A stretch of DNA of 64,000 nucleotides from Nitrospirota bacterium (GTDB taxonomy: Bacteria; Nitrospirota; UBA9217): contig CAVVUN010000001.1 of the NCBI GenBank assembly GCA_963751455.1, positions 608,001 to 672,000 of the forward strand, in the 5' to 3' direction. The notes below the pieces were generated by a model that saw only the letters and a list, made by a program, of their open reading frames with translations, was not told the origin of the DNA and did no database searches. This document shows positions 27,598 to 52,948 of this stretch, in pieces. Every line of letters begins with the position of its first letter. Within the stretch, counting starts at the first letter, position 1. The translations under genes and the position numbers were made by a program.

Positions 27598-27888
27598 TTA
27601 ACTCGCCTTTCTAAGTGCTGTAACAGGCTTGTGCTTTTTCATGGCATGCCACAGGTCCCAATCCCGCTGAAGGTTCAACCAGAATTCCGGCCCAGTGCCG
27701 AACGTCTCGCCAAACGCGAGGGCTGACGAGGCAGTCACACCGCGCCGGCCGTTCACGATCTCGTTCAACCTGGCCCAGGTCCAGCCCAGGTGCTTGGCAA
27801 GCTCTACCTGCTTCATTCCCATAGGCTCCAGAAATTCTTTGAGCAGCATCTCCCCCGGATGCGTGGGCGGTCTTTTTTTCGGCAGCAT
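27598..27888 (-). CDS. higA: HigA antitoxin (HTH-XRE)
   Basis: PTHPGEMLLKEFLEP, LNEIVNGRRGVT, PEFWLNLQ..WDL. Confidence 0.93.
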   Translation of the reverse strand: MLPKKRPPTHPGEMLLKEFLEPMGMKQVELAKHLGWTWARLNEIVNGRRGVTASSALAFGETFGTGPEFWLNLQRDWDLWHAMKKHKPVTALRKAS

Positions 27889-35867: not shown

Positions 35868-36719
35868 ATGCCTTATATAACTATTGACAAGGAAAACTCC
35901 GGCAACATTGATCTCTATTATGAGGACCATGGCGCAGGCAAGCCCGTTGTATTGATCCACGGCTGGCCGTTGAGCGGCGCCTCATGGGAAAAACAGGTCC
36001 CTGTCCTGCTCGATGCGGGTTACCGGGTCATCGCATATGACCGCCGCGGATTCGGCCACTCCGGTAAGCCGATATTCGGATACGACTTCGACACACTCGC
36101 CGCGGACCTGCACAAGCTCATCACGAAGCTCCACCTGCGTGACATTACCCTGGTCGGCTTCTCCATGGGCGGAGGCGAGGTAGCCCGCTATCTTGTTCAC
36201 GGATCCGAACGCGTAAGCAGGGCGGTCTTCATATCTGCCATTCCACCCTTCCTGCTCAAAACGCCCGATAATCCGGACGGCGTAGACGGCAGTGTGTTCG
36301 AGGGAATCAAGCAAGGCATAATTGCAGACAGACCGGCGTTCCTTTCCCGGTTTCTTTCCGATTTCTACAACGTCGACGTCCTGGCGGGCAAGAAGGTAAG
36401 CGATGAAGTCGTCCGGCTCAGTTGGAACATCGCGGCCGGAGCCTCTCCCAGGGGCACGCTCGATTGCGTTTCGGCCTGGTTGACCGACTTCCGAAGCGAT
36501 CTCAAGCGAATCGACATGCCGACTCTGGTGATTCACGGTGATGCCGACCGGATAGTACCCATCTCCAGCGGGAAGCGCATACCTGAGTTTATAAAGGAAA
36601 GCAAGCTTGTGGTCGTGCAAGGCGGGCCGCATGGTCTGAACTGGACCCATGCAGAGGAAGTCAACCGTGAGCTTGTGGAGTTCCTGGGGCAGGCGATCAC
36701 GAAGAAAGCAGCAGCCTGA
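35868..36719 (+). CDS. non-haem haloperoxidase/arylesterase-type alpha/beta hydrolase
   Basis: HGWPLS, YDRRGFG, GFSMGG, IHGDADRIVP, GGPHG. Confidence 0.92.
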   Translation: MPYITIDKENSGNIDLYYEDHGAGKPVVLIHGWPLSGASWEKQVPVLLDAGYRVIAYDRRGFGHSGKPIFGYDFDTLAADLHKLITKLHLRDITLVGFSMGGGEVARYLVHGSERVSRAVFISAIPPFLLKTPDNPDGVDGSVFEGIKQGIIADRPAFLSRFLSDFYNVDVLAGKKVSDEVVRLSWNIAAGASPRGTLDCVSAWLTDFRSDLKRIDMPTLVIHGDADRIVPISSGKRIPEFIKESKLVVVQGGPHGLNWTHAEEVNRELVEFLGQAITKKAAA

Positions 36720-36763
36720 ATGTACTCTTTTATCGATCGGTGCGGAGTGGACCGGCGCGGTCC

Positions 36764-37846
36764 TCAGGTGGCAGGAGCAGACTGGGCTTGTTTGTAGTGT
36801 GCACCGATCCATTGTACGATTTCAGGCCATATTCGCCGGTGGGCCGTTCTTCCGACCAGCAAACCTGCATGCCTCAACGCTACTCCGGTTTCACCCGTGT
36901 ACCAGAGCAGCAGCTTGTCGGTTGAGCGCACTGCTTCGTGAAACGGCAGAATCGACCGGGGCGGAACAACCGCGCATTCCGAATCAGCTACGGTCAGGAT
37001 TGGGGCATTTTCGTTCTCGGGTACGGCGCGTTTGCCGTTGATCTCAAGAGTGCCTTTCATAAAACGATCGTCGCGATACAGCAATTCGACGATATCTTCG
37101 AACAAATGCCGCGCAAGCGGCATCTCATCCAGCGACCATCGCTCGACGCAGAAGTGGATCCTCAGGGCTTCACTGTCGCCGAGACTCAGGAACAAGTCCA
37201 TCAGCCTCGACCATCCGAACACAACCGGCGCGGCAAGATAACTTATCGTATCCAGAAATGTCCCGGGTACATTGCCTGAAGGAAGCGGTACAGCGCGCGA
37301 AGATGGTGCCCGTGCAACCATCGGCGCAAAGATCCCGGTATCAGGGCCAAAGTGCATCGGTGCGCCGAGCGTAATAAGTCCCTGCACCAGGCCGGGATGG
37401 AGGGTTGAAAATATTGCAGCCAAGGTTCCCCCGAGAGAATGGCCTGCCAAAAATACCTTCTGTGTTCCGGTTTCCTTCTTGATCGTGTCAATGCTTTCAA
37501 GGATAAATGTATCGGAATATTCGGATAGCCCGATGTCCTGCGCGGAAGCACCCGGGGTTTTCCATTGGATCACATAAGGCCTGATTCCGCTCGATAGGCA
37601 CTTTCGGACAACACTGACCTGTGGAAGCAAATCCCATAGGTAAGCTTGTTTAATCGGGGCGGGAATAAGGAGGAGTACGGGGCAGTCTTTGCCGTTTTCA
37701 TAAGCCCTGACATTGAACAACGGCTTTGAGAGAACAATGCGGGACGGTGTTTCCACAGGACAGAGTCCCAGAGTATCGAGAGAAATACCGAACTGCCGCC
37801 GGTATATATCCATGAAATGGTATAGGCTGGGACGTGCATACTGCAT
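36764..37846 (-). CDS. PhaC (class III)-like alpha/beta-hydrolase-fold protein with Ser at the nucleophile position
   Basis: PVLLLIPAPIKQAYLWDLLPQVSVV, GHSLGG, C-terminal RHAGLLVG...IWPEIVQW. Confidence 0.75.
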   Translation of the reverse strand: MQYARPSLYHFMDIYRRQFGISLDTLGLCPVETPSRIVLSKPLFNVRAYENGKDCPVLLLIPAPIKQAYLWDLLPQVSVVRKCLSSGIRPYVIQWKTPGASAQDIGLSEYSDTFILESIDTIKKETGTQKVFLAGHSLGGTLAAIFSTLHPGLVQGLITLGAPMHFGPDTGIFAPMVARAPSSRAVPLPSGNVPGTFLDTISYLAAPVVFGWSRLMDLFLSLGDSEALRIHFCVERWSLDEMPLARHLFEDIVELLYRDDRFMKGTLEINGKRAVPENENAPILTVADSECAVVPPRSILPFHEAVRSTDKLLLWYTGETGVALRHAGLLVGRTAHRRIWPEIVQWIGAHYKQAQSAPAT

Positions 37847-37857
37847 CAGAAACTCCG

Positions 37858-38655
37858 TCAGACACTTGCATCTGCTTTTTCTTGAGCGCGGTCCAGGACC
37901 CCCTGTTCGCTCAAATAATCCAGCAGGGCCAGATAGCGCGGAGTCATGTCTTCCGGGACATAACCTGAAAAATAGTTTTGGGGCCAATTGACCAATTCCA
38001 GGTGATCGGCCGGCCAGGCGCCGAGGAACTCTCCCCATTGCGCGCTCGCAACCGATATGTGCCCGTCATTTTCGCCCTCCGCTTCCTCGATGATCTTGTA
38101 TGATAACCATAACGCCGGTGGGATACGCTCTTCCGGACATATTCCGGCTATCGAGAAATAGCGGATTCCGGGCATATCCGGCAACTCAGCATTGAGGGTA
38201 CGACACCGCGACGGCGTTGCATCCCAGATCGCTTCCACATCCACGATCATTTCAGTAAATATGCGGAGTGGTCCGAGGCTGTCGAAGTTCCGGACGAGCC
38301 ACTCACAATACGAACTACCCCGGTGTCCTGTGCCTACAGTAATGAGTGCAGCTACCCGCCCGGCCATATCAAGACGGCTGATCATATAGCGGGCATCCAC
38401 TCCGCCCATTGAATGAGCAATGATAATCACCGGTTCGTTCCTGTTGCCGATTTTTTCAAGCCTGGAGAGAATGTGGGACTTGAGCTCCTTTGCCCTGCGC
38501 TCGACGCCCGCAGTCGGGTGAACCTGCGTCGTTATCACCGGATACCCGCGTTGAGCGATTGCATGATCGATCCCGTTCCAGTAGTGAATGCGAAGCAAGC
38601 CAATCTGCACAACATCGAATCCCCACATGCCGTGGTGTAATACAATGGGCGTCAT
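37858..38655 (-). CDS. triacylglycerol lipase-like alpha/beta hydrolase
   Basis: PIVLHHGMWG, AHSMGG, ENDGHIS..SAQWG, DHLELVNW. Confidence 0.88.
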   Translation of the reverse strand: MTPIVLHHGMWGFDVVQIGLLRIHYWNGIDHAIAQRGYPVITTQVHPTAGVERRAKELKSHILSRLEKIGNRNEPVIIIAHSMGGVDARYMISRLDMAGRVAALITVGTGHRGSSYCEWLVRNFDSLGPLRIFTEMIVDVEAIWDATPSRCRTLNAELPDMPGIRYFSIAGICPEERIPPALWLSYKIIEEAEGENDGHISVASAQWGEFLGAWPADHLELVNWPQNYFSGYVPEDMTPRYLALLDYLSEQGVLDRAQEKADASV

Positions 38656-38781
38656 CCTAACCTCCAAGCGTCGATGTTTGCAACAATTCCCACTGCGATA
38701 TTTTTTAATATAGCATAGCCCCAAGTAAAACCGGCCCTCTGGTCCGCATATTTTCTCTGCTCGAAGACTCTCGGCCTCTCT

Positions 38782-39276
38782 CTACGCCGCAACAGGCATG
38801 CTTTTTTCCTCGACCTCCTGACGTTCGAGTTCCTCGATAAGTTCCTGCAGGAAATTGATCTGGCGGTTTCTCTGTGCGCGATCGCCGGCGCTCCACTTTT
38901 CGCTATCTGCCCGTTTATGGGCAATCTTGAATTTAATACCGCTCATTAAAGTGGTGTAGTCATTCGCATTCAGTTTTTTAACGTTTTGATGCGCTGCAAT
39001 AAACCAATGATACTCCGTCCCGACGGGAACCCCGGAACCTTCCGGAGCTTTTCCAATCCTCCGTTTTTTCACCGCGTAGTTGAATTCCCACTTATCCGGC
39101 GTCACCTTCGTCTCCTTCCATTCGCCTGGATCGTACTGCCACTTATGGCTCCTGCCGATCTTCATGCCTGTGTACCGCTTCCCCTCGAATTCCTTGAATT
39201 CGTTGTACGTTGAAGCGAGCCCTTTCTCGATCTCTTCGTTCTTTTGTTTTTTCCCTATGCGCGTCACGGTCTTCAT
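38782..39276 (-). CDS. conserved-looking basic hypothetical protein
   Basis: SD GGGAGGG; dense W/Y/H/K motifs (YTGMKIGRSHKWQYD, APEGSGVPVGTEYHW). Confidence 0.8.
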   Translation of the reverse strand: MKTVTRIGKKQKNEEIEKGLASTYNEFKEFEGKRYTGMKIGRSHKWQYDPGEWKETKVTPDKWEFNYAVKKRRIGKAPEGSGVPVGTEYHWFIAAHQNVKKLNANDYTTLMSGIKFKIAHKRADSEKWSAGDRAQRNRQINFLQELIEELERQEVEEKSMPVAA

Positions 39277-39391
39277 AGAGTCCCCTCCCTTTTACTGAAT
39301 TAGCTGATCACGTTGAACTTCGTGAACGGCAGTAGAAGGGCTCCCGCGAATCTGAGCCAGATCTCCCCTCGAGCCAGCCAACCGAATTACT

Positions 39392-40381
39392 TTATGCTGC
39401 TTTTTTCAGTTCGTATTTCCTAAGAAGTTCGGCGAGACGATCCATGGTCTCTGCCGCCCCTTCTTCCATCCCGGATTTGACCATCTCGTCCCGGTCCTGG
39501 ACTGACTGGAACACCGATTTGGTCACGAGCTTGGTTTTGCCTCCATGCTCTTCGAGCGTCATAGTTTCCATCGAGACATGGCCAGGCGTACCTTCGAATT
39601 CAAAGGTGTCCACGATTCGCTCCGGCGAGCGGATCTCGTGATATACGCCGTGAAACGCGTATTCATTGCCCTCAGCATCACGGTTGATAAAGCGCCACAT
39701 GCCTCCCGGTCGAACGTCCATCTTGTCAACAATGGTCGTAAACCGTCTCGGGCCCCACCACTCCGATATAAGGTCCGGGTTGGTGCACGCCTCGAACACA
39801 CGATTGCGGGGTGCATCAAAGAGCCGCGTGAGCACAATCTCCTGTTTTCCCGGTTCAGCTATCAGCGTAAAATCCTTCTTTATTATGATGCTTTGGGCAA
39901 GTTTGTCGAAAGACTCGTTCCAGCCTGCCCGGGTGTCGTCGCTCATTTTCCCTGACGGGATGCCGGCATGCTGCAGAGTCATTCTTGTCCTTCCTTCAAT
40001 CTCTTCGAACGTCACCGTGACCAGCAATTCCAGCGGCCATTCTCCGGGCATTCCATAGTGAGATGCTGGAACAATGTTCCCTTTCTCATCGGCAAAACTG
40101 TCGGTTACAACAAGCCGCTCCATCGGAACGATTTCGCGATAGACGCCTGTGCTCCAAAACTCCTGTCCTTCGGCCGAACGCATGCAATTGAGGTACTTGC
40201 CTCCCTCCCGAAGATCGATCCTGACTACCGGAGCGGTGAAGTTTTTCGGCCCCCACCAGCGCATGAATAGATCGGGAACGGTCCAAGCCTTCCAGATGAG
40301 TTCGCGCGGAGCATCGAAGACACGCGTGATTATAAGTCCTCTCTCTGTTTGCTTTTTTATCGGTTCTTTTTTTGTCGCCAT
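39392..40381 (-). CDS. tandem SRPBCC (AHSA1-like) domain protein
   Basis: Two domains beginning TRVFDAPRELIWKAWT and TRLFDAPRNRVFEACT, each with WWGP. Confidence 0.92.
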   Translation of the reverse strand: MATKKEPIKKQTERGLIITRVFDAPRELIWKAWTVPDLFMRWWGPKNFTAPVVRIDLREGGKYLNCMRSAEGQEFWSTGVYREIVPMERLVVTDSFADEKGNIVPASHYGMPGEWPLELLVTVTFEEIEGRTRMTLQHAGIPSGKMSDDTRAGWNESFDKLAQSIIIKKDFTLIAEPGKQEIVLTRLFDAPRNRVFEACTNPDLISEWWGPRRFTTIVDKMDVRPGGMWRFINRDAEGNEYAFHGVYHEIRSPERIVDTFEFEGTPGHVSMETMTLEEHGGKTKLVTKSVFQSVQDRDEMVKSGMEEGAAETMDRLAELLRKYELKKAA

Positions 40382-40572
40382 GGTTTTTCTCCTTTTTAAA
40401 GGCAAAAGGGACTAATTGTATCCTTTTTTAAAGGATAGCACCGGCCCTTGCAGGCGTCAACGGAAGCCTGTTTTTATGATAAGAAAGGGATAATGAATCC
40501 GTAGATACTGATGAGGGAGTTGGGGTGTCGGAAGGAAAGCAGAAATCAGGGATAATACTTACCCGCCGTGCT

Positions 40573-40956
40573 TCAGCCTATTTCGCTTTCTTTTGGCGGA
40601 ATAATGCAGAGAAAACCTAATGGTTCGTCACCGAGAGTATGCAGCTGATGCTCTTCGTTCGGGCTTATATAAACCACATCTCGGGGACCGACCTCGACTT
40701 CCTTATCCCCAAGCCGTACACGCGCCCTGCCGTGGAGAATCAGTACACCGTGGTCATGGGGGTGTTTCTCATGCGCGGTCCAGCCGCCCGGCTCGACTCG
40801 GAAATAACGCATAATGAACTGCCTGGCTCCGTCGGCCTTGCCGATCAGCACTTTGCCGTCAGCGCCCCTGGTATTCGATTTGATATACCCCCGCGGGATT
40901 GCCCCTTCCCAGTTGAAATTTCCCTCTTCCCCGGTAAAGCGATGCACTACACTCAT
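40573..40956 (-). CDS. cupin domain protein
   Basis: MRYFRVEPGG..AHEKHPHDH, PNEEHQL, LGFLCIIP. Confidence 0.9.
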   Translation of the reverse strand: MSVVHRFTGEEGNFNWEGAIPRGYIKSNTRGADGKVLIGKADGARQFIMRYFRVEPGGWTAHEKHPHDHGVLILHGRARVRLGDKEVEVGPRDVVYISPNEEHQLHTLGDEPLGFLCIIPPKESEIG

Positions 40957-41078
40957 TACGCAACCTCCGAAATTTGAATAATATACATCGTATTTTGATT
41001 TTTTACCTCTCTTTTTGAAGGAGAAGGGTTCGGACAGGAAAGCTGAATAAAACAGAGCTTATCAGGCCATCCAAGAAA

Positions 41079-41211
41079 GATGATCTCGTAAAAAGTCGTC
41101 TCCCCGGTGAAAACCGGGATCCAGTGGTTATCGAACTTATTGAAAAGACTGGATACCGGCGTTCGCCGGCATGACGAAATTGGGTGTTTTCTGACTTCTT
41201 ACGAATGCATC
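41079..41211. mobile_element. MITE (133 bp) carrying an internal REP-like palindrome
   Basis: TIRs GATGATCTCGTAAAAAGTC / GACTTCTTACGAATGCATC; AAGAAA duplicated at 41073-41078 and 41212-41217. Confidence 0.75.
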
Positions 41212-41245
41212 AAGAAAGCTGAAGACAATAATAATTGCTTTGCAG

Positions 41246-43579
41246 CTATCTTTTATCCACCAATTCCCTGAGTTTATCGGCCGGTAAAGGTTCACTGAAG
41301 AGAAAGCCCTGCATCTCGTCGCAGCCCGTCTTGCTCAGGAATTCAAGTTGCTCCTCCGTCTCCACACCCTCGGCCACGACCTTCATCTTCATGCTATGGG
41401 CCATTGCGGTTACTGTCTGGACGATCGTTCTGTCATCGGCGTCGGTAGTGATATCCCGAACAAAGGACTTGTCGATCTTGAGGCGCTCTATCGGCAGCCG
41501 CTTAAGATAATTCAGGGATGAGTAGCCTGTGCCGAAATCATCTATCGAGATATGAATCCCCATTTTCGTCAGCTCTTTCAGCCGTGCTACTGACCGCTCG
41601 ACGTCACTCATTGCGGTCGTTTCCGTGATTTCAAGGTCCAGGTAGGCTGGAGGCATCCCGGTCTCCTCAAGGACCTTTGTTATGTTACTGACGAACTCCG
41701 GGCTCTGGAACTGACGGGCTGAGAGGTTAACCGTGAGGCAGAGAGGAGGCAATCCGGCATCGATCCATGACTTGAATTGGGTACAGACAGTCCGCAAGAC
41801 CCACTTGTCTATGGCGGTAATGAATCCTGTCTCCTCGGCTATAGGAATAAAGCTGGCTGGTTCCAGAAGTCCCCTTTCGGGGTGCCGCCACCTGACCAGT
41901 GCTTCAGCGCAAACGATACGCCTGGTACTGATATTCACCTGCGGCTGGTAGTCCACGGAGAGTTCATTGCGCTCGACTGACTGGCGCAGCCAGCTTTCCA
42001 TCAGCATGCGCTCAAGGGAGCGTACATTGATGGCCGTATTGTAGAACTGGAAATTGTTCCTGCCCAGCTCTTTGGCGTAATACATGGCAATATCGGCATA
42101 CCGGAAGAGCGTGTCCATATCTTCGCTGTCATCCGGATAAACGCTGATGCCGATGCTCGTCGTCATGTGGAGCTCATGGCCCGCAAGCAAAAAAGGTTTC
42201 CTGAACGACTCGATGATCTTTCGGGTAATATCCCCAATGACCTCCGCCTTGGTGATATCGGCAAGGATGATATTGAATTCATCGCCTCCGGTGCGCGCAA
42301 CGGTATCCGATTCCCTGACAGTGGCTTTAAGCCGGGTGGTAACCTCTTTCAGGAGCATGTCCCCTACTTCATGGCCGAGAGTATCGTTGATCTCCTTGAA
42401 ACGGTCGAGGTCCATAAAAAGAAGGGCCATGCTTGTCCGGTGCCTTCGGGCTTGAGCGGATTCAATACGGATGATATCGATAAAAAGACGCCGGTTCGGC
42501 AGATCGGTCAACGCATCGTGATGCGCCATATGCCGCATCTCTTCTTCTATCAGCATGCGGTCATTGTAGAGTCGGGCATTTGCGAGAGCAAGCGAAAGAG
42601 AGGCGGAAAGCTTTCTGGCAAAATCAACGTAGTCGTCATTAAAATAGAATGGAAATGCGCTATAGAAGTTTATAACGCCCAGCACATCTCCCCTGCTGAT
42701 CAAGGGAGCAGCCAGTAGAGACCGGATGCCGAATTTTCTTATGTCCTCCTGACTCAGGCGATCGTCATTATAGGCGTCATTAAAGACAATGATATCCCTG
42801 CCGGAAACCGCATAGTGTGAACTCTTAAAGCGTTCGGCGCTGATATGAGCGCCGATAAATTCTTCAGGGATATTATAGCCGTACTTGACGACAAAAGAGC
42901 CGTCTTGCAGCAGTGAGATCGTGATTGCATCCGCTTTTAATATAGCTCCCGACTCATGCACAGCTCTTTGCATGATTTCATCGTAGTCGAAGGTTGAGTG
43001 GATGGTCTCGTTGATTTTATTGAGGGCATCACTAAGTTCCTTTGATTCTATTAATTTCTCCTCGGCCCGCTTGCGGTCGGTGATCTCATCCTGAAGAGAG
43101 GCGGTAAGCCTGGATAATTCCGCCGTCCTTATTTCAACACGGCGCTCCAGGTCGGCATGGGCCTTCAACAATTCATGCTCGGCTTTCCTGCGTTCGGCCC
43201 TCTCGGTGGCTTCAAGAATTGCCCGCCGTACAGCCGGCCCAAGTCTCCGGAGCCGATTTTTGAGCACATAATCCGTTGCCCCTTTTTTCAACGCCTCTAT
43301 CGCAAGGTCTTCTCCAATTACCCCGGATACAAAAAGGAAGGGAGTCCCCGGGCTCTTTTCAACAGCCAATTCTAAAGCCGAGAGACCATCGAATTCGGGA
43401 AGAGAGTAATCCCCGAGAATGAGATCGAACATACCCTCCTCCAGGGCGTGGACATATTCTTCTTTTGTGTCAACGCGCACGACCTCGCATTGAATACCGT
43501 CCTCATGAAGGCGTGCCTGAATGAGCTCGGCATCGTAGGCATTGTCTTCCAAATTCAATATGCGCAGCTTATTGTCCAT
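41246..43579 (-). CDS. REC-GAF-GGDEF-EAL diguanylate cyclase/phosphodiesterase
   Basis: Receiver (LEDN, LGDYSLP), GAF, intact GGDEF, EALVRW, DDFGTGYSS. Confidence 0.94.
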   Translation of the reverse strand: MDNKLRILNLEDNAYDAELIQARLHEDGIQCEVVRVDTKEEYVHALEEGMFDLILGDYSLPEFDGLSALELAVEKSPGTPFLFVSGVIGEDLAIEALKKGATDYVLKNRLRRLGPAVRRAILEATERAERRKAEHELLKAHADLERRVEIRTAELSRLTASLQDEITDRKRAEEKLIESKELSDALNKINETIHSTFDYDEIMQRAVHESGAILKADAITISLLQDGSFVVKYGYNIPEEFIGAHISAERFKSSHYAVSGRDIIVFNDAYNDDRLSQEDIRKFGIRSLLAAPLISRGDVLGVINFYSAFPFYFNDDYVDFARKLSASLSLALANARLYNDRMLIEEEMRHMAHHDALTDLPNRRLFIDIIRIESAQARRHRTSMALLFMDLDRFKEINDTLGHEVGDMLLKEVTTRLKATVRESDTVARTGGDEFNIILADITKAEVIGDITRKIIESFRKPFLLAGHELHMTTSIGISVYPDDSEDMDTLFRYADIAMYYAKELGRNNFQFYNTAINVRSLERMLMESWLRQSVERNELSVDYQPQVNISTRRIVCAEALVRWRHPERGLLEPASFIPIAEETGFITAIDKWVLRTVCTQFKSWIDAGLPPLCLTVNLSARQFQSPEFVSNITKVLEETGMPPAYLDLEITETTAMSDVERSVARLKELTKMGIHISIDDFGTGYSSLNYLKRLPIERLKIDKSFVRDITTDADDRTIVQTVTAMAHSMKMKVVAEGVETEEQLEFLSKTGCDEMQGFLFSEPLPADKLRELVDKR

Positions 43580-43656
43580 ACCGGTTATTGCTTCCGGCAT
43601 CGTGGCTATGTCCGGAATCCAATTCAGCATTTAGTTTGGTTGCGCTATGTGCGTGG

Positions 43657-44106
43657 TCACTCAGGGGTCCTGCCGGGCGGTGGTTCATTGATAATGGCCC
43701 AGAATACCCCGAGTCCTTTCACCGCACTGGCAAACTCATGAATGGCTATGGGCTTTACCACGTAGGCGTTTACGCCGAGCCGATAGCTCTCGACAAGATC
43801 CCGCTCCTCGCGTGACGAAGTAAGCACCACGACCGGAATTATTTTGAGTTTTTCATCGGATTTTACGGTCCTGAGCACTTCAATCCCGTCTATTTTAGGC
43901 AGCTTAAGGTCTAAAAGAATGACCGCCGGATTTTCCTCGCGCCGCTTTGCGAATGTTTCGCGCCGATACAGATAATCGAGGGCTTCGGCGCCATCACCCG
44001 CCACCACCACCTCATTGGCAATGTTGTATTCGGCAAGCGCTTTGAGTGTCAGTTCTACGTCATAGCGGTTGTCCTCAACCAGCAGAATCCGTCTTAGCTC
44101 CATCAT
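43657..44106 (-). CDS. single-domain response regulator (Rcp1-like)
   Basis: LLVEDN, LLDLKLPKIDG, LTSS, NAYVVKP. Confidence 0.94.
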   Translation of the reverse strand: MMELRRILLVEDNRYDVELTLKALAEYNIANEVVVAGDGAEALDYLYRRETFAKRREENPAVILLDLKLPKIDGIEVLRTVKSDEKLKIIPVVVLTSSREERDLVESYRLGVNAYVVKPIAIHEFASAVKGLGVFWAIINEPPPGRTPE

Positions 44107-44110
44107 GTCT

Positions 44111-45539
44111 CACGCCTCCTTCGCGGATTAGAGAGAAATAGAACGTCGTTCCTTCCCCAATGACGCTTTCGGCCCATACACTGCCTCCGTGGCGGTGGAT
44201 AATACGCTGCACATTCGCGAGCCCCACGCCTGTGCCTTCGAACTCCTCGGACTTATGCAGGCGCTGGAAGAGGCTAAAAAGCTTATTTTTGTATCTCATA
44301 TCAAACCCCACCCCATTGTCCTTCACAAAAAATACTAGTCTGTTTTCTTCATCCCTGCTCCCTATCTCTATTATCGCATGTTTACGGGGACGCGTAAACT
44401 TAAGAGCATTTGAAATCAGGTTGGCCCATACCTGCCTGAGGAGCGTAGGATCTCCGAAGACCACGGGCAAGCTCTGTATCTTCCACTCCACCTCTCTTCC
44501 TTGCGCTTCCACGCTGAAATCACGAACAACCTCACTCACAAGGGCGTTAAAATCAACAGGCTGCCTTTTCATTTCGACGCGGCCTGCCCGTGAAAAGGCC
44601 AGGAGATCATCAATCAGATTGCCCATCTTGCCGGCTGAATCCGTAATCACCTCGAGGTAGTGCCTGCCTTCTTCGTCCAGGCCCTCTCCGGATCCTTTGG
44701 TTATCAGATCAACGAACCCCGTAATGTGCCGGAGCGGAGCGCGTAAGTCATGCGAAACCGAATAGGAAAAAGCCTCAAAGTTCCCTGTTTGCAGCCTGAA
44801 GCCGGCCGATGGTGCGCTGCAATTCGGCATAAGAATGCGCCAGTTCTGCGGTCATGTGATTGAGCGCCTTCGCAAGCTGCCCGATCTCATCACCCGAATA
44901 CTCCGGTGCGCTCACTTTAAGATCCCCGCCGGCGATGCGCCGCGCCATATATGAAAGCCTTAGCAGCGGCTCGGAAATCAACCGTCGCAACGATATCTGA
45001 AGCAGAAACGCGCCTCCCGCAAGTGCAAGCGCCACCACGAGCATTATGCCGGCATAGCCCCTCAGCCGTGAATAAACGCCAACCATATCGGCGCGCAGAT
45101 AAAGTGTGCCCAGGGGGAGTCCCTTTTCCTTAATGGCTCGGACCAACTCAACATGCCGGCCCGTGGTTCGCAGGCCTTCGGGCCCGGGCTTTGGCGGCGA
45201 GATCAATGCCTGACCTGCTCGTACATAAGAGGCAAACACACGGCCGTGAGTGGTGTACACGGCAGCGAAAGAGACGGCGGGCGAGGCCTTCAGGGTATTC
45301 AATATTTCCTGCGCGGTCTTCGCATCATCAAACGCCAGTGCAGGCGCAGTGTTATCGGCGAGAAACATGCCTCCCTCATTCACTTCCTTGATCAGGCGGC
45401 TGCGATACGTGGCGATTTCATAAGATGCAATGCCGGCCATAACCAGTAACAGCGACGAAAAAACGGTTGCCAGGATGATCAGAAGCAGCTTGCGCTGAAT
45501 AGGCCAATTGCGAAGATGAGAAGTGCGAAATATCCTCAT
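44111..45539 (-). pseudogene. membrane sensor histidine kinase (periplasmic sensor-HAMP-HisKA-HATPase) with a frameshift near 44777; 3' end approximate
   Basis: ...AANREL continues as EAFSYSVSHDLRAPLR if one T is removed from GAACTTTGAG; N, G1, F and G2 boxes are in ORF 44075-44830. Confidence 0.85.
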
Positions 45540-45540
45540 A

Positions 45541-46086
45541 CTATAATACCGCCCCGCATTCCGCGGATCTCGCTATCCGCTTCAGTCTGGAGTCGATCTT
45601 CAGTCCCACCTGCGCTGTGGCCTTCGAATTCAACTCAAAACCCACTTTACCGCCTTCCATTACCAAACCGACCATACCACCTTGCCGGCAGAATTCACCG
45701 ATGTCGAGCACATCGCTCACGATCAACATGCTGATGTTTCTGATCGGGGCCAGTACCTGCTGCATCCGCGGCTGCTCCGAACTGCTTACGAACAGCATGT
45801 GGCACTCCCGGCCGGCTTCCGCATTTTCCGGATGGCGAATTTCTACGGGATGAGCGCCTACGCTTGTTTCGCCCATTTCCCGCTGCAGCCACGGTCCGAA
45901 CGGGTCTTTGCCCAACACGCAGACGACGAACGGGCTGGTGTCCGCGGAGAATGCATCGACGGGCCACTCCACGAAAAGAGCGAATTTGTACAGCATTGCC
46001 GCCTTGACCTGGTATTCGGGGGCCTGAGCGTACACCAACGTGAATCGCACCAGAAGGATGAGACCCAAAGAAATATTTTTGATCAC
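45541..46086 (-). CDS. YfiR/DUF4154-family periplasmic protein
   Basis: EYQVKAAMLYKFALFVEWP, CVLGKDPFG, FELN...GLKIDSRL. Confidence 0.9.
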   Translation of the reverse strand: MIKNISLGLILLVRFTLVYAQAPEYQVKAAMLYKFALFVEWPVDAFSADTSPFVVCVLGKDPFGPWLQREMGETSVGAHPVEIRHPENAEAGRECHMLFVSSSEQPRMQQVLAPIRNISMLIVSDVLDIGEFCRQGGMVGLVMEGGKVGFELNSKATAQVGLKIDSRLKRIARSAECGAVL

Positions 46087-46118
46087 GGAAGCACCTAAGA
46101 CCAAGACAAAATCAATTT

Positions 46119-46267
46119 TCGCGCAAAGCCGCAAAGTCGCAAAGAAAAGCTAACTTTTTTATGTTTTATAAAATCAAGATCAAGACTTAAATATTTCTTT
46201 GCGCCTTGGCGGCTTTGCTTGCACCCCAGTCGTTTGCGAGTGTTCCGCGAGCACAGGGCGCGCGAGA
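46119..46267. repeat. palindromic repeat built of CGCAAAG 8-mer triplets with a nested insert
   Basis: TCGCGCAAAGCCGCAAAGTCGCAAAG ... CTTTGCGCCTTGGCGGCTTTGC[insert]GCGCGAGA. Confidence 0.75.
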
Positions 46268-46354
46268 CACTTTTGTTTTATGGTTTATCCGTCGGAATCC
46301 TGTCTCATTAAGATTTAACCTGAAACATTAAACCGGAGTCTCGAAACTGCAGTT

Positions 46355-48495
46355 TCAAAACAGCCACGTAACTTTTCCGTAAACGTCGCGCTCGATCTCG
46401 GCCGGTTCACTTCTGAAAAACGGGTTCGTTCCGAATTCAGGGTGATGATCATCGAGCAGGTTCCTGCCGACGATTTCCAGGGTCAGGTTTTTCCGAAGCT
46501 TTCGTGCCAAACGCGCGTCGAGAGCTATATATGAATCAACCATGTTCCCTACTCCGGGCGCATTGCCGGGAATGAGTGCCTTGATCCGGTCTACGTACCG
46601 GCCGCTGAGATCGAATTCCACATTACCCGTCAGGTTCCAGGAGGATTGCAGGTATACCTGGTTTTGAGGGCTTTGCCCCTCGGCAGCTTCGGCATCAGGC
46701 GGCAGCCCCGGCTCTTTCCGCTCCAACTGCATCTTAAGATAAGTATAAGCCGCATAAAGCCGCATCCTTGTGTCACTTGCCATGTGGCGGCCAGTTCTGC
46801 GCCATATGTCCTGGCATCCAGGCCGTTAATCGACATCAGCGGGAGCGAAAGTGTCCCATCCGGTCCCGGCTGAATAGCGCCGGGCTGAACAGTAGTAATA
46901 TCGTGATAACGATTGTAAAAAAATGCGCTGTCCACCGAGAAATCCGGCTTTGCCTGGACCCGATAGCCGAGCTCGTAGGCCCACAGTTTTTCCGAATCGA
47001 GGTCGGGATTTCCTACGACGACCGGAAAAACCGGCGGGACAATCGAGACCGGAAGGGAACTGGCCCTCATTACGCCGGATTCGGCCTCGTGCGGCGTGCG
47101 CACAGCCCGCGACACTGCGGTCCATACGGTTTGGCGTTTACTGGGCGTCCAGAGCAGGCGAAGGGTAGGCTGCGCCTCGAAGTCCGTTTTATCGTTATGC
47201 TCAAATTTGGAGCCGAGTATGACGCTCACTTTGTTCTCGACCAGCGCGATTTCGTCATGCACAAACGCGCTGCCTACATGGGAATACCGCTGATTCCGGT
47301 CCCAGCTCAGGAAAAATCCGTTGTCTCTTTCGCTGTTGCTCGCAAACATGTCGGTCAGGCGATAACCCACCCCGTAAACGATTTTGTGCCGGTCTCCCCA
47401 TTTCAACTGATGCTGGAAATCCAGGTCATAGATGTCCCATTCCAGTTTTATCTGCATGCTTTCCAGCTCCCGATCGAACCGCTCCCAATAAAAATGCACG
47501 ATCCAACCGGAATCACTGTCCACCTGATGCGTCCAGCGGCCCAGGAGATTTACATCAGTCGTGGGTTCCGAATCAGCGCTCGTGAATGCATACGGCGGCG
47601 CGGTTTGAGGAAGGAGGCTCTTGCTGCCGGGCTCGCTCCGGAGGTAGTCGCCTTGGAAGGTCACCAGGTCCTGTTTGGTCTTTTGCCAGTCAGACCGGAA
47701 TCCGCCGCTTCTGCCCTTCCAATCGTCACTGGTATTGCCCACGCCCGAAAACTGTTCATCCCGGTCAAAGCCCTTTCCATACGCGCGGAAGAAGCGGTCT
47801 TCGCCGATTTTGCCGCCGTAGCGGAGCGTGCCGAAGCCTTTCTCCTCGGTTCCGCCACCGATGCTCAGCATACCGCCCTGGGTGTCCTTCGCCGGCTTGG
47901 TGATGATATTGATGATACCATTGACTGCGTTGGCTCCCCACAGGCTCGCGCCCGGTCCGCGAATAACCTCAATGCGTTCGATGTCCTCGAGCGGATAATC
48001 CACCGAGTCCCAGAAGACGCCGGAGAACAGCGGGTTGTACAGAACGCGCCCATCTATCTGTACCAGCAGTTTGTTAGCCAAGCGGTCATTGAATCCCCGC
48101 GAGCTAATTGCCCATTTGTTGTTGTCCATGCGCGCGACGTTCATCCCCGGAACCCTTCGGAACAGCTCAGGGATTGTCGTGGCGCCTGAGCGCCGGATAT
48201 CCTCCTGAGTGATAACGTAAACTGCAGCGGCCGACTCACCGACCGTGCTTTCCCTGCGTGTAACGGTGGTAACCTCAATGTTCATCAACTGTTCCAGCTC
48301 CAGCTCCCTCAGGCGCGTCGGCAGCTGCGATTCTTTTCCCGTATTCTGAGTCGTCTGTTGTTCTGGAAAACCGGCGGTGGTTTCGGCAGCCTCCGCGTTT
48401 ATGGCAATCTTTAATATCAGCAGCAAGATGATACTGCACTTCCAGTCTCTCCATAGGGGTGTGTTCCGCTTCAAGACAGGTATTCGGTTCATCAC
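46355..48495 (-). pseudogene. TonB-dependent receptor with a frameshift near 46765
   Basis: Plug motifs (LEQLMNIEVTTV, IERIEVIRGPGASLWGANAVNGIINIITK); WQVTQG joins RLYAAYTYL if one base is added; ends YGKVTWLF. Confidence 0.85.
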
Positions 48496-49015
48496 TCCTC
48501 CATTCTTCTTATGCAGATCATGAAATACTCTTCTTCATCTTTTAGTTGCCATAATGAACCCTACATAGCTGTATATAAGAATAGTACCGATTTGCGGATA
48601 GCACAACTTAGCGGCTAGCACAGGGAGCATCGGCCTGGTCGATCCGTGGTGGTTCGACGCCAAATGATTCGTTTATCTGCAGCTATTGCACCGGCAGCCG
48701 CTTCAGATTCGATATAGAGGGCTGGATGCAATCTGTAAAGAAAGCTTGTCAAAGGGAGATTATGAAACCGACCGGGTCACTGAGAGGTGAAGGGAGAGAG
48801 GAGAGTGTGAACAGTCAGGGCGATCGAGAGGCATGGTAACGGTTCCAGGAAACGTTCCTCTTATAAGGAAGGCTGTATCTCTTGCGGGAAAGCGCGACCA
48901 AAGTGGGAACAGAGATAGTTAAGGTGGGGTCTATCGGAGATGTATGGATGTATGGATGAAGTCAGGATAAATTACAGGAAGAGGCCCGGACCTGCTCCCG
49001 GGCCACTTCAAGGCC

Positions 49016-49393
49016 TCACGCCGCTTTCTTCAACGCATATTCAACCATGCCCTGAAAATCCACTACCACGGCCGGTTCATCCCCGACCACCCAGGCGTCA
49101 TGTCCTGTCGGCAACAGGGACACATCACCGGCCTTGCATTCGATCTGCGTCCCGTCATCCATCTGCACCATGATCGTTCCCGACACATGATACTGGAAAT
49201 GTGGCGCTTCACAGCTCTTTGTCTTTGCCAAAGGCTGCACGGACGTCGACCATTTCCAGCCAGGGTCGAACGTAGCGCGGCCGATCATGGCCCCTCCTAT
49301 ATTTACGAGCTCCAATTTTCCTTTTGGAAAAGTTCTCACTTCGTCGGGTTTTGTAAAATGCTTGAGTTCCGCATTGGCTGCCTTTACCGGCAT
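49016..49393 (-). CDS. cupin domain protein
   Basis: PGWKWS..VQP.AKT.SCEAPH, GHDAWVVGDEP; SD AAGGAG. Confidence 0.9.
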   Translation of the reverse strand: MPVKAANAELKHFTKPDEVRTFPKGKLELVNIGGAMIGRATFDPGWKWSTSVQPLAKTKSCEAPHFQYHVSGTIMVQMDDGTQIECKAGDVSLLPTGHDAWVVGDEPAVVVDFQGMVEYALKKAA

Positions 49394-49559
49394 TGAACTC
49401 ATCTCCTTATCAGTAAAGCGGCGAAACTTCATAATCTCCGCCTCCTTCAAGCATACCCGAATAATACCGCATCCGTCTCTAACCTCTAACAAGGACATGG
49501 TGCGGTTTTTACCATAACGGTTTATAATGAACAGTAAAAAGACTATTTGAAGGAGCAAC

Positions 49560-50078
49560 ATGGCTTATATAATGGTCGATATAGAAGCAGATGGACCGAT
49601 TCCCGGAGATTATTCGATGATATCTTTTGGCGCGGTCCTCGTTGAACCGGGTCTAAACCATGTTTTTTATGGGCGATTGAAACCGATTTCTGACAAGTGG
49701 GCCCCCCCTTCTCTTGCGATAGCAGGTTTTTCCCGAGAGGAAACGCTGAAATTCGATGAACCGAAGACGGTGATGGAAAATTTTACTATCTGGATCAAGA
49801 ACGAAGTGAAAGCCGAACCGATGTTCATTTCAGATAACACAGGGTTTGATTGGCAGTTCATGAGCTGGTACTTTCACCATTTTATGGGATCAAATCCGTT
49901 CGGATTCAGATCCACTGATCTTGGATCACTTTACAAGGGCCTGCTCAAAGACACCCGTGCGAATTTTAACCATTTAAGAAAAACGAAACACACGCATCAT
50001 CCGGTGGACGATGCCAGGGGCAATGCCGAAGCACTGCTGCATATGAGAGACGAGCTGGGTCTTAAGATCATGCTGTAA
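49560..50078 (+). CDS. DEDDh 3'-5' exo(ribo)nuclease domain protein
   Basis: VDIEADGP, FDWQF, HTHHPVDDA. Confidence 0.88.
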   Translation: MAYIMVDIEADGPIPGDYSMISFGAVLVEPGLNHVFYGRLKPISDKWAPPSLAIAGFSREETLKFDEPKTVMENFTIWIKNEVKAEPMFISDNTGFDWQFMSWYFHHFMGSNPFGFRSTDLGSLYKGLLKDTRANFNHLRKTKHTHHPVDDARGNAEALLHMRDELGLKIML

Positions 50079-50188
50079 GTGGATCCCCTCCCTGGAGCCG
50101 GAGGCTCCTTTTCACGTCGCATTACCCCGGCAGGAGTCGGGGATTGCAAGTCGCGGGATTCTGCTATTGAACAGTGTAAACCTTGCCC

Positions 50189-50385
50189 CTATTTCCCGCT
50201 CTCGATAATTTCCCGGAACTCGTCAGCAGGAAGCGGCTTGCTGAAGAGAAATCCCTGAATCTCGTCGCACCCGGCGGTCTTGAGGAATGAAAGCTGCTCG
50301 ACCGTTTCAACCCCTTCGGCGATAACGTCCAATCGGAGTTTGTGCCCCATCGCGACCATGGCGTTCACAATCGCCTGGCGGCACA
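50189..50385 (-). pseudogene. C-terminal fragment of an EAL domain
   Basis: AIVNAMVAMGHKLRLDVIAEGVETVEQL...DEIQGFLFSKP; the rest of the domain is absent. Confidence 0.8.
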
Positions 50386-50579
50386 AGCTATTCTCCGCCT
50401 TTTGTAACATCGAGAGCTCTATCCTGGAATCTTGTGCTAATATATTTTCCTGATCCTTCGATCGCTTTTTTAAAGACATTTCGCAATTACATTTAAACGG
50501 TTTATAATTATATTGATAAACTTACAGATGAGGACTCGTTTTATCCGGCAATTCATTTTCTTCTCAAAAAGGATAATTT

Positions 50580-51056
50580 ATGGATCACGAAAACAATATC
50601 AACAGTATCAATGAACGGCACCGCGAATTTCGGAGAAGAAGCGATATCGATAAAAACAATGCAAGCGCTCTGACGAGCGATGACGAATTCAGGACCGCGA
50701 TCGAAGCGACCGGCCTCGGCATCATGGACTATTATCCGTTGACCGGAGAACTGTACTGGAACAGTTCAGCTAAGGAACACTTCGGACTTGCTCCGGATGC
50801 ACAGGTAAACTACAACGTGTTTCTTGTCGGTCTGCACCCAGAGGACCGGGAGCGTATCGAGCTGCTATTTCAGAACGCGCTTGAGCCCATAACCGAAGGC
50901 AACTTCAGGGCGGAGTATCGGACGATCGGCATTGAGGACGGGAAGGAACGCAGGATTGCGATGCGCGGCAAAGCGTTTTTTAATCGTCACGGAGAAGCTG
51001 TCCGATTCATAGGGACGACTCAGGATTTAACCGAGTTTAGACCGGAAGGACGATGA
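50580..51056 (+). CDS. stand-alone PAS domain protein
   Basis: LHPEDRE, FRAEYR, RGKAFF...AVRFIGTTQDLTE. Confidence 0.8.
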   Translation: MDHENNINSINERHREFRRRSDIDKNNASALTSDDEFRTAIEATGLGIMDYYPLTGELYWNSSAKEHFGLAPDAQVNYNVFLVGLHPEDRERIELLFQNALEPITEGNFRAEYRTIGIEDGKERRIAMRGKAFFNRHGEAVRFIGTTQDLTEFRPEGR

Positions 51057-51250
51057 CGGCGAGCGTGATCATGATTGATGTAAAAGAAGAAACGAGAACG
51101 GCAGAAATACTTCTCGTAGAAGACAATCCAGCTGACGTCGTCCTGATGAAGGAGGCGCTCAAGCGGGGTAACATCTCGAATAATATTTCAGTAGCCGTCA
51201 CGGGTGATGAGGCCTTCGATTTCCTGCATAAGAGAGGCAAGTATGATGGC
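51053..51250 (+). pseudogene. N-terminal fragment of an Rcp1-like response regulator
   Basis: ILLVEDNPADV...[14 protein letters not shown], then runs into an inverted kinase fragment before the phospho-Asp. Confidence 0.75.
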
Positions 51251-51360
51251 AAGGCCGACCCCGGCGCCGGAATACTCCTCACGCGTATGCAGCCTCTGGA
51301 AGATGGAGAAAATACGGTCGTAATAATCCGGATCTATCCCGATCCCGTTGTCGTGCACGC
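51243..51360 (-). pseudogene. HATPase fragment of a histidine kinase
   Basis: [39 protein letters not shown]. Confidence 0.8.
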
Positions 51361-51392
51361 GGTGGCCAAATAAGAATTCTGCAGTCCCGGCG

Positions 51393-51782
51393 CTACGCCG
51401 CTTTTCCTGTCCGCATAAAAAGGTTCCGTATTTCTTTGGGAAGCTGTTCAAACGTATCGACCAATTCGTCTTTCGGCGCATTATCAGCGAGCGTCGACAG
51501 TACTGCACGTGCATGTTCTTCTGCCGTCGCCGGGTCAACACCCTCCCTATCCGCGATCTGGGCAAGAAATTCATCGATCCCGAACGGTTGCGCCAGCGGG
51601 GATTGCTTGAGAAACCGCTTGAAGTCTGCAGGTAGCGCGGCAGCCAGGTCATCGGCCTGGCCGAATGTGATCCGTTGTCCGAGAACTTCAAGAGCTGCTC
51701 GTATCGCCTTCACTACATCGATATCGGATGTGAACCGGGCCCGGTCGCGCACTGACTTTATATAGTTATTATAATAATCCAT
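51393..51782 (-). CDS. DUF2267-family protein
   Basis: Internally repeated [11 protein letters not shown]...DLAAALP / ARAVLSTL...[10 protein letters not shown]. Confidence 0.85.
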
Positions 51783-51816
51783 CGCTGTTCTCCTGCGCGG
51801 TCAACCTGAAATCGGG

Positions 51817-52302
51817 TCATGCGGCCCTTCTCCGTTCTGCCTGGACCGAGAAGTCCATGATAGTCGGATTCACCATTCTCATGTAGTCGTCAAAGGAAAG
51901 CCTTACCAGTTCCGAAAAGGAGCATGCATTAAAGGCTATTTCCTTGTCTTGCGTCAGCGCCCGTGAAACAATAACATCCATGCCATACAGGTTTCCGAAA
52001 GGAGGCTGCGATCCAGGCTGGCAATCAGGAAACATATCTTTATATTCGTCCTCCGGCATCAGCACCGCCTCGCGGGCGCCTGAATTGTCTTTCAAGAGGG
52101 CGAAATCAATATAGTGAAATGCGGGCAGGATGCACATGACTATCTTCCCGTCAAGTTTGACAATCACCGTTTTTGCCAGATCCTGCCCTTTTACGTGGGC
52201 CGATGCAGCGATCTCCTGGGCAGTGTACGCGGGAGAATGAGCAATACTTACATACTTCACGTTCTGACCGTTCAAGTAATCCTTTATTTTAATTGAAGGC
52301 AT
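51817..52302 (-). CDS. YbaK/EbsC aminoacyl-tRNA editing-fold protein
   Basis: HSPAYTAQEIA, LAKTVIVK, FPDCQPGSQPPFGNLYG. Confidence 0.9.
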   Translation of the reverse strand: MPSIKIKDYLNGQNVKYVSIAHSPAYTAQEIAASAHVKGQDLAKTVIVKLDGKIVMCILPAFHYIDFALLKDNSGAREAVLMPEDEYKDMFPDCQPGSQPPFGNLYGMDVIVSRALTQDKEIAFNACSFSELVRLSFDDYMRMVNPTIMDFSVQAERRRAA

Positions 52303-52426
52303 GACACACCTCCTTATGTTCCTTGGCGTTCGTCGCCCTCATGTTGCTTTAAATCAGGAGGCTCAATCCGGATGCGGTAAATAATTCAAATCCGGCAAAC
52401 CGTCTAGGTTGAAGACGGGAAGAACA

Positions 52427-52948
52427 CTATGCAGCTTTCTTCTTTACGGCTTTCTCGCCTTCCGGAAGACTCGGCGTCTCGATCTCGATCTTTTTAGGCT
52501 TCACCTCTACCGCCGAAGGAACGGTGATCTCAAGCATGCCGTTGACGTATGTTGCCTTCATCTGATCGATCTTGGCGCCCGTCGGCAGCGTGAACCGCCG
52601 CTCGAACTTGCCATAGGAGAGTTCCCGGCTGATATAGTCCTCAGTCTTGGTTTCTTTATCCTGTTTCCTCTCCCCCTTGATGATGAGCTGACGCGAGTCT
52701 TCATCGAAGGAGACGTCGACGTCCTTGGGATCGATGCCGGGCAATTCGCATTTCATAATCAGGTTGTCGCCTTTAATGTACGTCTCGGCCAGCGGCGTCC
52801 GTGCTCCTGTGACTTCCGGGGCTGGTATATTTGCGCCAAGGAACTGGCTGAACATTCTCGCCATATCGCGCTGCATTTGCTGTAGCTCGCTCAACGGGTT
52901 TCCTCCTCTTAAAATATTGAAAGGATCAAAAAGGCTCAGGTTTGCCAT
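52427..52948 (-). CDS. Hsp20/alpha-crystallin small heat-shock protein
   Basis: ELPGIDPKDVDV, YGKFERRFTLP, ATYVNGMLEITVP, KKIEI. Confidence 0.93.
   Translation of the reverse strand: MANLSLFDPFNILRGGNPLSELQQMQRDMARMFSQFLGANIPAPEVTGARTPLAETYIKGDNLIMKCELPGIDPKDVDVSFDEDSRQLIIKGERKQDKETKTEDYISRELSYGKFERRFTLPTGAKIDQMKATYVNGMLEITVPSAVEVKPKKIEIETPSLPEGEKAVKKKAA

Follow-up and report, generated by a model that had tools for sequence, protein, structure and literature searches.

Seven neighbouring but unrelated proteins encoded in a 64,000-nucleotide stretch of the genome of a Nitrospirota bacterium (GCA_963751455.1, contig CAVVUN010000001.1, positions 608,001 to 672,000; hereafter the window) end in Ala-Ala (AA). 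Terminal Ala-Ala is the ClpX recognition element of ssrA tags and of Caulobacter CtrA, and a first-pass annotation had proposed that these proteins form a degron-defined regulon. Judged from the sequences, the AA ending is real, selected and probably a degron for ClpXP, and it is probably a trait of protein families and of the whole lineage, not the mark of a regulon defined by this locus. The degron half of the proposal was well backed, if indirectly, because the ending is selected at the exact C terminus, nearly absent from exported proteins and conserved in orthologs, and because the host ClpX has the residues for binding ssrA tags. The clustered-regulon half, in contrast, was not supported, since the ending occurs genome- and lineage-wide in families, relatives do not keep the cluster, searches for a common upstream motif found none and a role in stress fits only some of the families.

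The seven genes lie in the interval from 35.8 to 53.0 kb of the window (Table 1). Their C termini had been read correctly: the list of open reading frames (ORFs) and independent gene calls agree, and in all seven ORFs the stop codon directly follows Ala-Ala. The original family labels were upheld by Pfam, NCBIfam and PDB searches, with the cupin match below the cut-off and the hypothetical protein of 164 amino acids (aa) staying unnamed; the nearest solved structures of the alpha/beta hydrolase are non-haem bromo- and chloroperoxidases. The claim that six of the seven tails are basic was confirmed, with Lys or Arg at position -3 or -4 in six and a strict [KR]AA in five. That the tails extend beyond the conserved folds held for four proteins, in which 10 (haloperoxidase, match ending at 273 of 283), 12 (YbaK, 149 of 161), 6 (SRPBCC, 323 of 329) and 17 residues (Hsp20, Pfam match ending at 156 of 173) follow the fold, and is consistent with the model of the DUF2267 protein, in which the last helix ends at residue 122 and residues 126-129 have a pLDDT below 50, so that the tail is predicted to be unstructured. 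It fitted the cupin less well, which reaches just 3-5 residues beyond the end of its homologs.

Genes were called with a hexamer-model caller (5,357 genes, 4,845 with a score of at least 10), and collapsing identical ends, among them ten copies of one transposase, left a genome-wide set of 4,791 proteins. AA ends 147 of the 4,845 called proteins and 137 (2.9%) of the collapsed set and is the commonest terminal dipeptide, KAA and KKAA being the commonest terminal tri- and tetrapeptide. In the interval, 7 of 20 called genes (35%) end in AA against 0.57-0.83 expected; the count of 20 is approximate, as two frameshifted genes were called without their second halves, neither of which ends in AA, and one call of 49 aa is doubtful. 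The remaining 26 called genes of the window contain no such ending. The frequency in the interval, which the first-pass annotation had suggested comparing with that of the proteome, is thus not matched genome-wide. A 20-gene window with seven AA genes was reached in 6 of 5,000 permutations, the interval being the densest stretch of the genome, and in a variable-width scan, run with 3,000 permutations per version, p was 0.0057 in plain form and 0.0077 with stratification for length and predicted location. Five AA genes each are also found in three further 20-gene windows, in one of which a transposase copy is counted, and close pairs of AA genes outside the interval number 25 against 10.4 expected (maximum 22 in 2,000 permutations).

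Genome-wide, the enrichment at the exact C terminus is about 3.5-fold. The dipeptide is found at 2.9% at offset 0, at 1.1% at offset 1 and at 0.7-1.2% over offsets 1-11 upstream of the terminus (about 0.8%), and 305 of 36,976 uncalled shadow ORFs (0.8%) end in it. Each of the 16 possible Ala-Ala codon pairs occurs, as does each of the three stop codons, and the downstream DNA varies. With proteins assigned to locations by a hydropathy heuristic, which classed all seven proteins of the interval as soluble, AA ends 116 of 3,074 soluble proteins, 9 of 468 and 11 of 627 proteins in the membrane classes and 1 of 622 proteins with a signal peptide only. Since shadow ORFs and upstream positions stay near 0.8%, every codon pair is used and predicted exported proteins are depleted, the ending is selected at the protein level. 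Lys is enriched 3.6-fold at -3 (48 of the 137 AA proteins) and 2.6-fold at -4 (37 of 137), and the order of residues matters: KKAA-stop occurs 30 times in this genome, KAKA-stop and AKKA-stop four times each. Summed over 40 relatives, which are not independent of each other, KKAA-stop was counted 245 times and KAKA-stop 79 times, with a pattern that also admits a Trp codon. The AA habit is lineage-wide and stronger in this genome (30 vs 4). The genome shows no enrichment of terminal IA, VA, AV or LA.

The tail is kept in orthologs of several of the seven families. For Hsp20, orthologs were examined at the best 29 loci out of 97 other genomes with a match, and all 29 end in AA, which is encoded by 14 different codon pairs and preceded by variable residues from -5 back. 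All 18 full-length SRPBCC orthologs and several single-domain forms end likewise. Lys at -3 and -4 is nearly invariant in the orthologs of these two families. Across the families, many orthologs have Ile, Val, Phe, Glu or Pro in place of Lys, yet keep AA. The ending was found in four of four close orthologs (75-78%) and six of nine family matches of the haloperoxidase-like protein, and in 15 of 17 database homologs of the DUF2267 protein, with two of four scored copies in same-family genomes. The 164-aa protein belongs to a highly conserved family (4,805 homolog matches), and AA ends 38 of 119 of its homologs among the matches listed and 13 of the best 15. YbaK showed the ending in four of seven homologs from named genomes. 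Six shorter YbaK homologs (38-41%) in relatives all lack AA, and the cupin, discussed below, goes against the pattern. Unlinked paralogs of AA proteins end in AA in 31 of 113 cases. Because orthologs elsewhere and unlinked paralogs keep the ending, these comparisons indicate that the tail goes with the protein family and not with the locus.

The host has a single tmRNA, and its tag, ANNELAYAA, is devoid of basic residues and, in the comparison suggested earlier, also terminates in AA. Its clpX gene scores above the curated cut-off and lies downstream of two genes that are labelled, from their sequences, as trigger-factor-like and clpP-like. The encoded protein has all six residues (Y153, V154, T199, V202, R228 and H230) at the positions that contact the Ala-Ala-COO- of the ssrA tag (PMC7652416). 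SspB was not found in the host genome. We consider it likely that the seven tails, as exposed and mostly basic Ala-Ala ends kept by selection in each family, act as a built-in ssrA-like (C-motif 1) degron for ClpXP. ClpX would bind the terminal Ala-Ala-COO- in its axial pore, pull on the 5-17 free residues of the tail and feed the protein to ClpP; SspB would not be needed for recognition, and the basic residues may aid or tune it, as in the RRKKAI of MuA. Proteins made in bursts, such as chaperones, detoxifying and small ligand-binding proteins, antitoxins, c-di-GMP enzymes and transposase, could in this way be cleared when their synthesis stops or when they are left unassembled. The local pile-up would come from accessory genes, many from tail-bearing families, that collected here and likewise at several further places in the genome, and any coordination would be exerted via the shared protease rather than the locus.

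Several observations weigh against this reading. About 48 of the 137 AA proteins are expected by chance, and the ending is also present in core proteins (S3, S20, IF-1, PyrF and aspartokinase). A screen in E. coli showed that terminal AA was required without being enough by itself, 39% of AA 5-mers falling below the weak benchmark, and Leu or aromatic residues, and also Arg, were favoured upstream while Gly and Pro near the end were disfavoured (PMC10862746); the tails described here are Lys-rich, and two of them (TGKAA and MPVAA) contain Gly or Pro. LKKAA and RRRAA partly fit the context found in that screen, which was done in E. coli and not in the host. Since residues upstream matter there, the seven tails may differ widely in strength. 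Other candidates for the reader besides ClpX exist in the host, namely Lon and HslU-like, FtsH-like and Prc proteases. The cupin tail is present in two of eight same-family orthologs and missing from six; the ending occurs in four of 150 distant representatives, a set with many fragments, and in the protein's own paralog in the genome, and from this distribution the tail looks like a recent gain. Finally, repeats resembling insertion sequences are no nearer to AA genes than to others (p = 0.54) and the neighbourhoods of AA genes are just slightly richer in small genes; genome-wide, the accessory-island step is weakly backed.

That the tail is a degradation or binding signal for a reader other than ClpX appears unlikely to us; Lon, FtsH, HslUV and ClpA/ClpC-type chaperones would come into question, as would an adaptor peculiar to the lineage that needs the basic residues in addition to the alanines. 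The enrichment of Lys and its near invariance in Hsp20 and SRPBCC orthologs, next to a host tag that has no basic residue, point in that direction, as do the failure to find SspB, the presence of several other proteases and the fact that the ssrA tag is readable by four E. coli proteases (PMC10862746). However, the invariant part of the tails is exactly the Ala-Ala-COO- bound by ClpX, all six contact residues are present, and the many replacements of Lys leave AA in place. ClpX also reads the basic tail of MuA (PMC8138137), so that a basic AA tail suits it on both counts. Family-specific structural roles, for instance a flexible soluble extension in Hsp20 or helix capping in SRPBCC and DUF2267 proteins, would make the likeness of the tails superficial. 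We regard this as quite improbable, because unrelated folds converge on the same final two residues at variable distances from the fold, no excess is seen away from the exact terminus and structure does not predict depletion from exported proteins, even though conservation varies by family (from 29 of 29 to 2 of 8) and families with similar jobs differ in carrying the tail, as hemerythrin, SnoaL_2 and Usp do. That the ending reflects a mutational or translation-termination bias, or a DNA or RNA element over the stop codon, with the cluster as a chance extreme, is very improbable. A Lys-rich C terminus is a general feature of bacterial proteins (PMC7246954), terminal KK is enriched here as well (107 vs 21.8 expected) and the interval was picked after the fact; but KK is indifferent to protein location whereas AA is not, the order of residues matters, the text consulted in PMC7246954 does not list AA-stop as an enriched pair, and neither the variety of codon pairs, stop codons and downstream DNA nor the lack of an excess in shadow ORFs agrees with such a bias. 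It is largely refuted by the codon and location tests.

The model of the first-pass annotation, a co-regulated stress or stationary-phase unit with a shared degron, is highly improbable. The interval is indeed the densest AA stretch of the genome, also after stratification, many AA proteins genome-wide belong to families of general-stress proteins, and the genes for Hsp20, YbaK and DUF2267 follow one another in the same direction, 124 and 34 bases apart, and are probably transcribed together. SRPBCC and the 164-aa protein are the only other adjacent, co-directional genes of the set; the seven genes lie on both strands and are separated by 8 kb of signalling and receptor genes, none with the tail and some frameshifted. 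At most two of the seven families were found together in any of 20 regions (6-20 kb) from relatives. Among 63 same-family genomes, many of them incomplete, the cupin was found in eight, the haloperoxidase-like protein in nine, the DUF2267 protein in two and the 164-aa protein in none, and a metagenome scan returned only two contigs of 1 kb. The Hsp20 of the window is a second copy (57%) of an Hsp20 that adjoins hrcA elsewhere in the genome. Nine Hsp20 loci of relatives with inspected neighbours mostly adjoin hrcA too, with CIRCE sites, and the 1.5-kb flanks of 29 ortholog loci contain no YbaK or DUF2267. Four CIRCE-like sites occur in the genome; the other Hsp20 copy and hrcA (C12:495037 and 495832) have one each and the window Hsp20 none, and from its sequence context the latter seems to be a duplicate that left HrcA control and kept its tail. 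The best reading of the interval is a patchwork of sporadically distributed accessory genes, not a conserved cluster.

Upstream sequences gave no sign of common control. No motif in the form of a plain or gapped word was found before the seven genes, with six testable regions, low power and 67% of random sets doing as well, nor before 22 hand-picked stress-type AA genes (87% of random sets did as well), and for all AA genes (106 regions vs 3,231) the best p value of 5e-6 was within the range of 20 random sets. Promoter and terminator scans remained at shuffle level (20 vs 15.0 and 21 vs 19.3). The word TTGA-N16-TGCT precedes 8 of 46 genes of the [KR]AA subset against 44 of 3,231 and beat 30 of 30 random sets; as it is a promoter-like word of the housekeeping type (in fuller form TTGAC-N16/17-TGCTA) that precedes many core genes genome-wide, and did not repeat in other AA genes (2 of 60, p 0.2), it was rejected as a regulatory word and kept as a hint. 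Among the seven it precedes SRPBCC alone (window 40460-40432, minus strand).

Pfam searches of the 130 other non-redundant AA proteins showed a broad range of families. They include Ku, three hemerythrins, PfpI, OsmC, Hsp20, a ribosome-hibernation/cold-shock fusion, SnoaL and AHSA1; 3-dmu-9, NmrA, an aldo-keto reductase, HTH and CopG antitoxin-like proteins and two transposases; and response regulators, kinases, AcrB-type pumps and FtsH. Four of the 27 EAL matches in the genome end in AA. That no transport or signalling protein ends this way is right for the window only. By comparison, 74 non-AA proteins from five regions chosen regardless of tails (one long protein of 75 was left out) were mostly of core, membrane and transport families, a sample too small and too clumped for a formal enrichment test. 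In families chosen from the AA list, three of five hemerythrins and four of four SnoaL_2 proteins carry the ending; in families chosen blind, none of 17 Usp and none of four ferritins do, and CsbD, sought in the genome as a further test family, was not found. The stress or stationary-phase interpretation thus suits Hsp20, Ku, PfpI, OsmC and hemerythrin, but not the tail-less Usp and ferritin, nor the EAL proteins, response regulators, transposase and ribosomal proteins that carry AA.

The boldest reading, which we find doubtful, is a lineage-wide programme in which about 90 proteins (2% of the proteome) would bear a basic degron type of their own, (K/R)(K/R)AA. This degron, a cross between the ssrA and MuA signals and unlike the host's own tmRNA tag, would be read without SspB, would be gained by incoming genes and would define a post-translational regulon cleared at a growth-phase switch. 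The cupin, with AA in two of eight orthologs and in both copies of this genome, seems to be an example of such a gain after arrival.

Native AA degrons conserved in orthologs are already established singly. In Caulobacter CdnL, more than 80% of orthologs keep AA or VA (PMC5324124), in Streptomyces sigma-AntA 67 of 71 orthologs end in AA (PMC7142297), and both proteins are stabilised by AA-to-DD exchange. Like these and CtrA, the proteins described here are native with a terminal AA kept in orthologs; unlike those single regulators with measured turnover, they comprise about 90 proteins in excess of expectation, of many folds, known from sequence alone. Cleaved RseA, ending in GVAA, is a native ssrA-like C-motif 1 degron of ClpX (Flynn 2001/2003, as cited in PMC7652416 and PMC8138137). 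With C-motif 1 the present tails share a free terminal Ala-Ala after a short stretch, in a host whose ClpX has the six contact residues and whose tag ends in YAA. They differ in being gene-encoded, neither added by tmRNA nor exposed by cleavage, in a genome in which no SspB was found, and in upstream residues that are Lys-rich instead of Leu, Tyr or Asn-Asp-Glu. The C-motif 2 degron of MuA, RRKKAI, which is read by ClpX (PMC8138137), likewise has a basic run before two small or non-polar end residues, but its final residue is Ile and not Ala. No published KKAA-type degron or proteome-wide survey of native AA tails was found in a search that, apart from the papers cited here, covered listings and the beginnings of abstracts and lacked most subscription papers. 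Passages of PMC12974527 contained nothing on native AA tails, and PMC7246954, a survey of 1,582 genomes for biases at the C terminus, does not mention AA-stop as enriched in the text consulted. Native Ala-Ala degrons have so far been known one protein at a time. If the tails are true degrons, sequence alone would yield a list of about 90 probable substrates of ClpXP in a lineage not studied before, the motif would have a Lys-rich flavour distinct from the tmRNA tag, and DUF2267, the 164-aa family, DUF1579, DUF2795 and DUF3175 would be marked as likely short-lived. Even then, no new system would be established, and the cluster itself would add little meaning.

Table 1 Proteins ending in Ala-Ala and other features of the window, with positions counted from its first nucleotide.
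Position	Strand	Feature	Length (aa)	C-terminal tail	Remark
35868..36719	+	Non-haem haloperoxidase-like alpha/beta hydrolase	283	TKKAAA	
38782..39276	-	Protein of a large family without name	164	SMPVAA	No Pfam or NCBIfam match
39392..40381	-	Double-domain SRPBCC/AHSA1 protein	329	ELKKAA	AHSA1/SRPBCC x2
49016..49393	-	Cupin-like protein	~125	ALKKAA	Weak cupin match, below Pfam cut-off
51393..51782	-	DUF2267 protein	129	RTGKAA	
51817..52302	-	YbaK/tRNA-edit (tRNA_edit) family protein	161	ERRRAA	
52427..52948	-	Hsp20 (HSP20)	173	VKKKAA	
6771-14654	+	Three tandem genes	863-865	AL(A/S)YE	
27598-27888		HigA		RKAS	Outside the interval
36764-38038	-	PhaC-like hydrolase			No AA tail; class III model match below cut-off
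44075-45539	-	Sensor kinase			Split over two frames
46355-48495	-	TonB-dependent receptor			Split over two frames; both pieces match NF053590
50189-51373		EAL, PAS and receiver-like fragments			Short

HigA, which had been listed beside the seven, was not retained: its gene falls outside the interval, and AS shows no enrichment at C termini (30 seen vs 25.9 expected). Its ending is perhaps a weakened form of the AA tail; two HTH proteins that resemble it end in KRAA and KKAA (C11:26408-26722 and C12:228713-229027). Many homologs of the 164-aa protein, for which a search of the ESM Atlas gave nothing usable, have long Lys/Arg-rich tails whose last residues are AA or another small residue. Ten copies of a DDE transposase (G000:C1:120942-122318 and nine others) end in LQRAA, which recalls the C-terminal ClpX signal of MuA, and an IS110 transposase also ends in AA. 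The contigs C10 and C15 share identical or near-identical genes (e.g. C10:32999 and C15:1602556), and given a listed contamination of 5.37%, part of this duplication may be an assembly effect. In the interval, the split sensor kinase, the split TonB-dependent receptor and the short EAL, PAS and receiver-like fragments are pseudogene debris or assembly errors. The PhaC-like hydrolase lies among the seven genes, and a PhaE subunit encoded elsewhere in the genome (C15:970602-971639) ends in AA. Near the start of the window, the three tandem genes, which seem to be ABC-permease-like, all share the ending given in Table 1.

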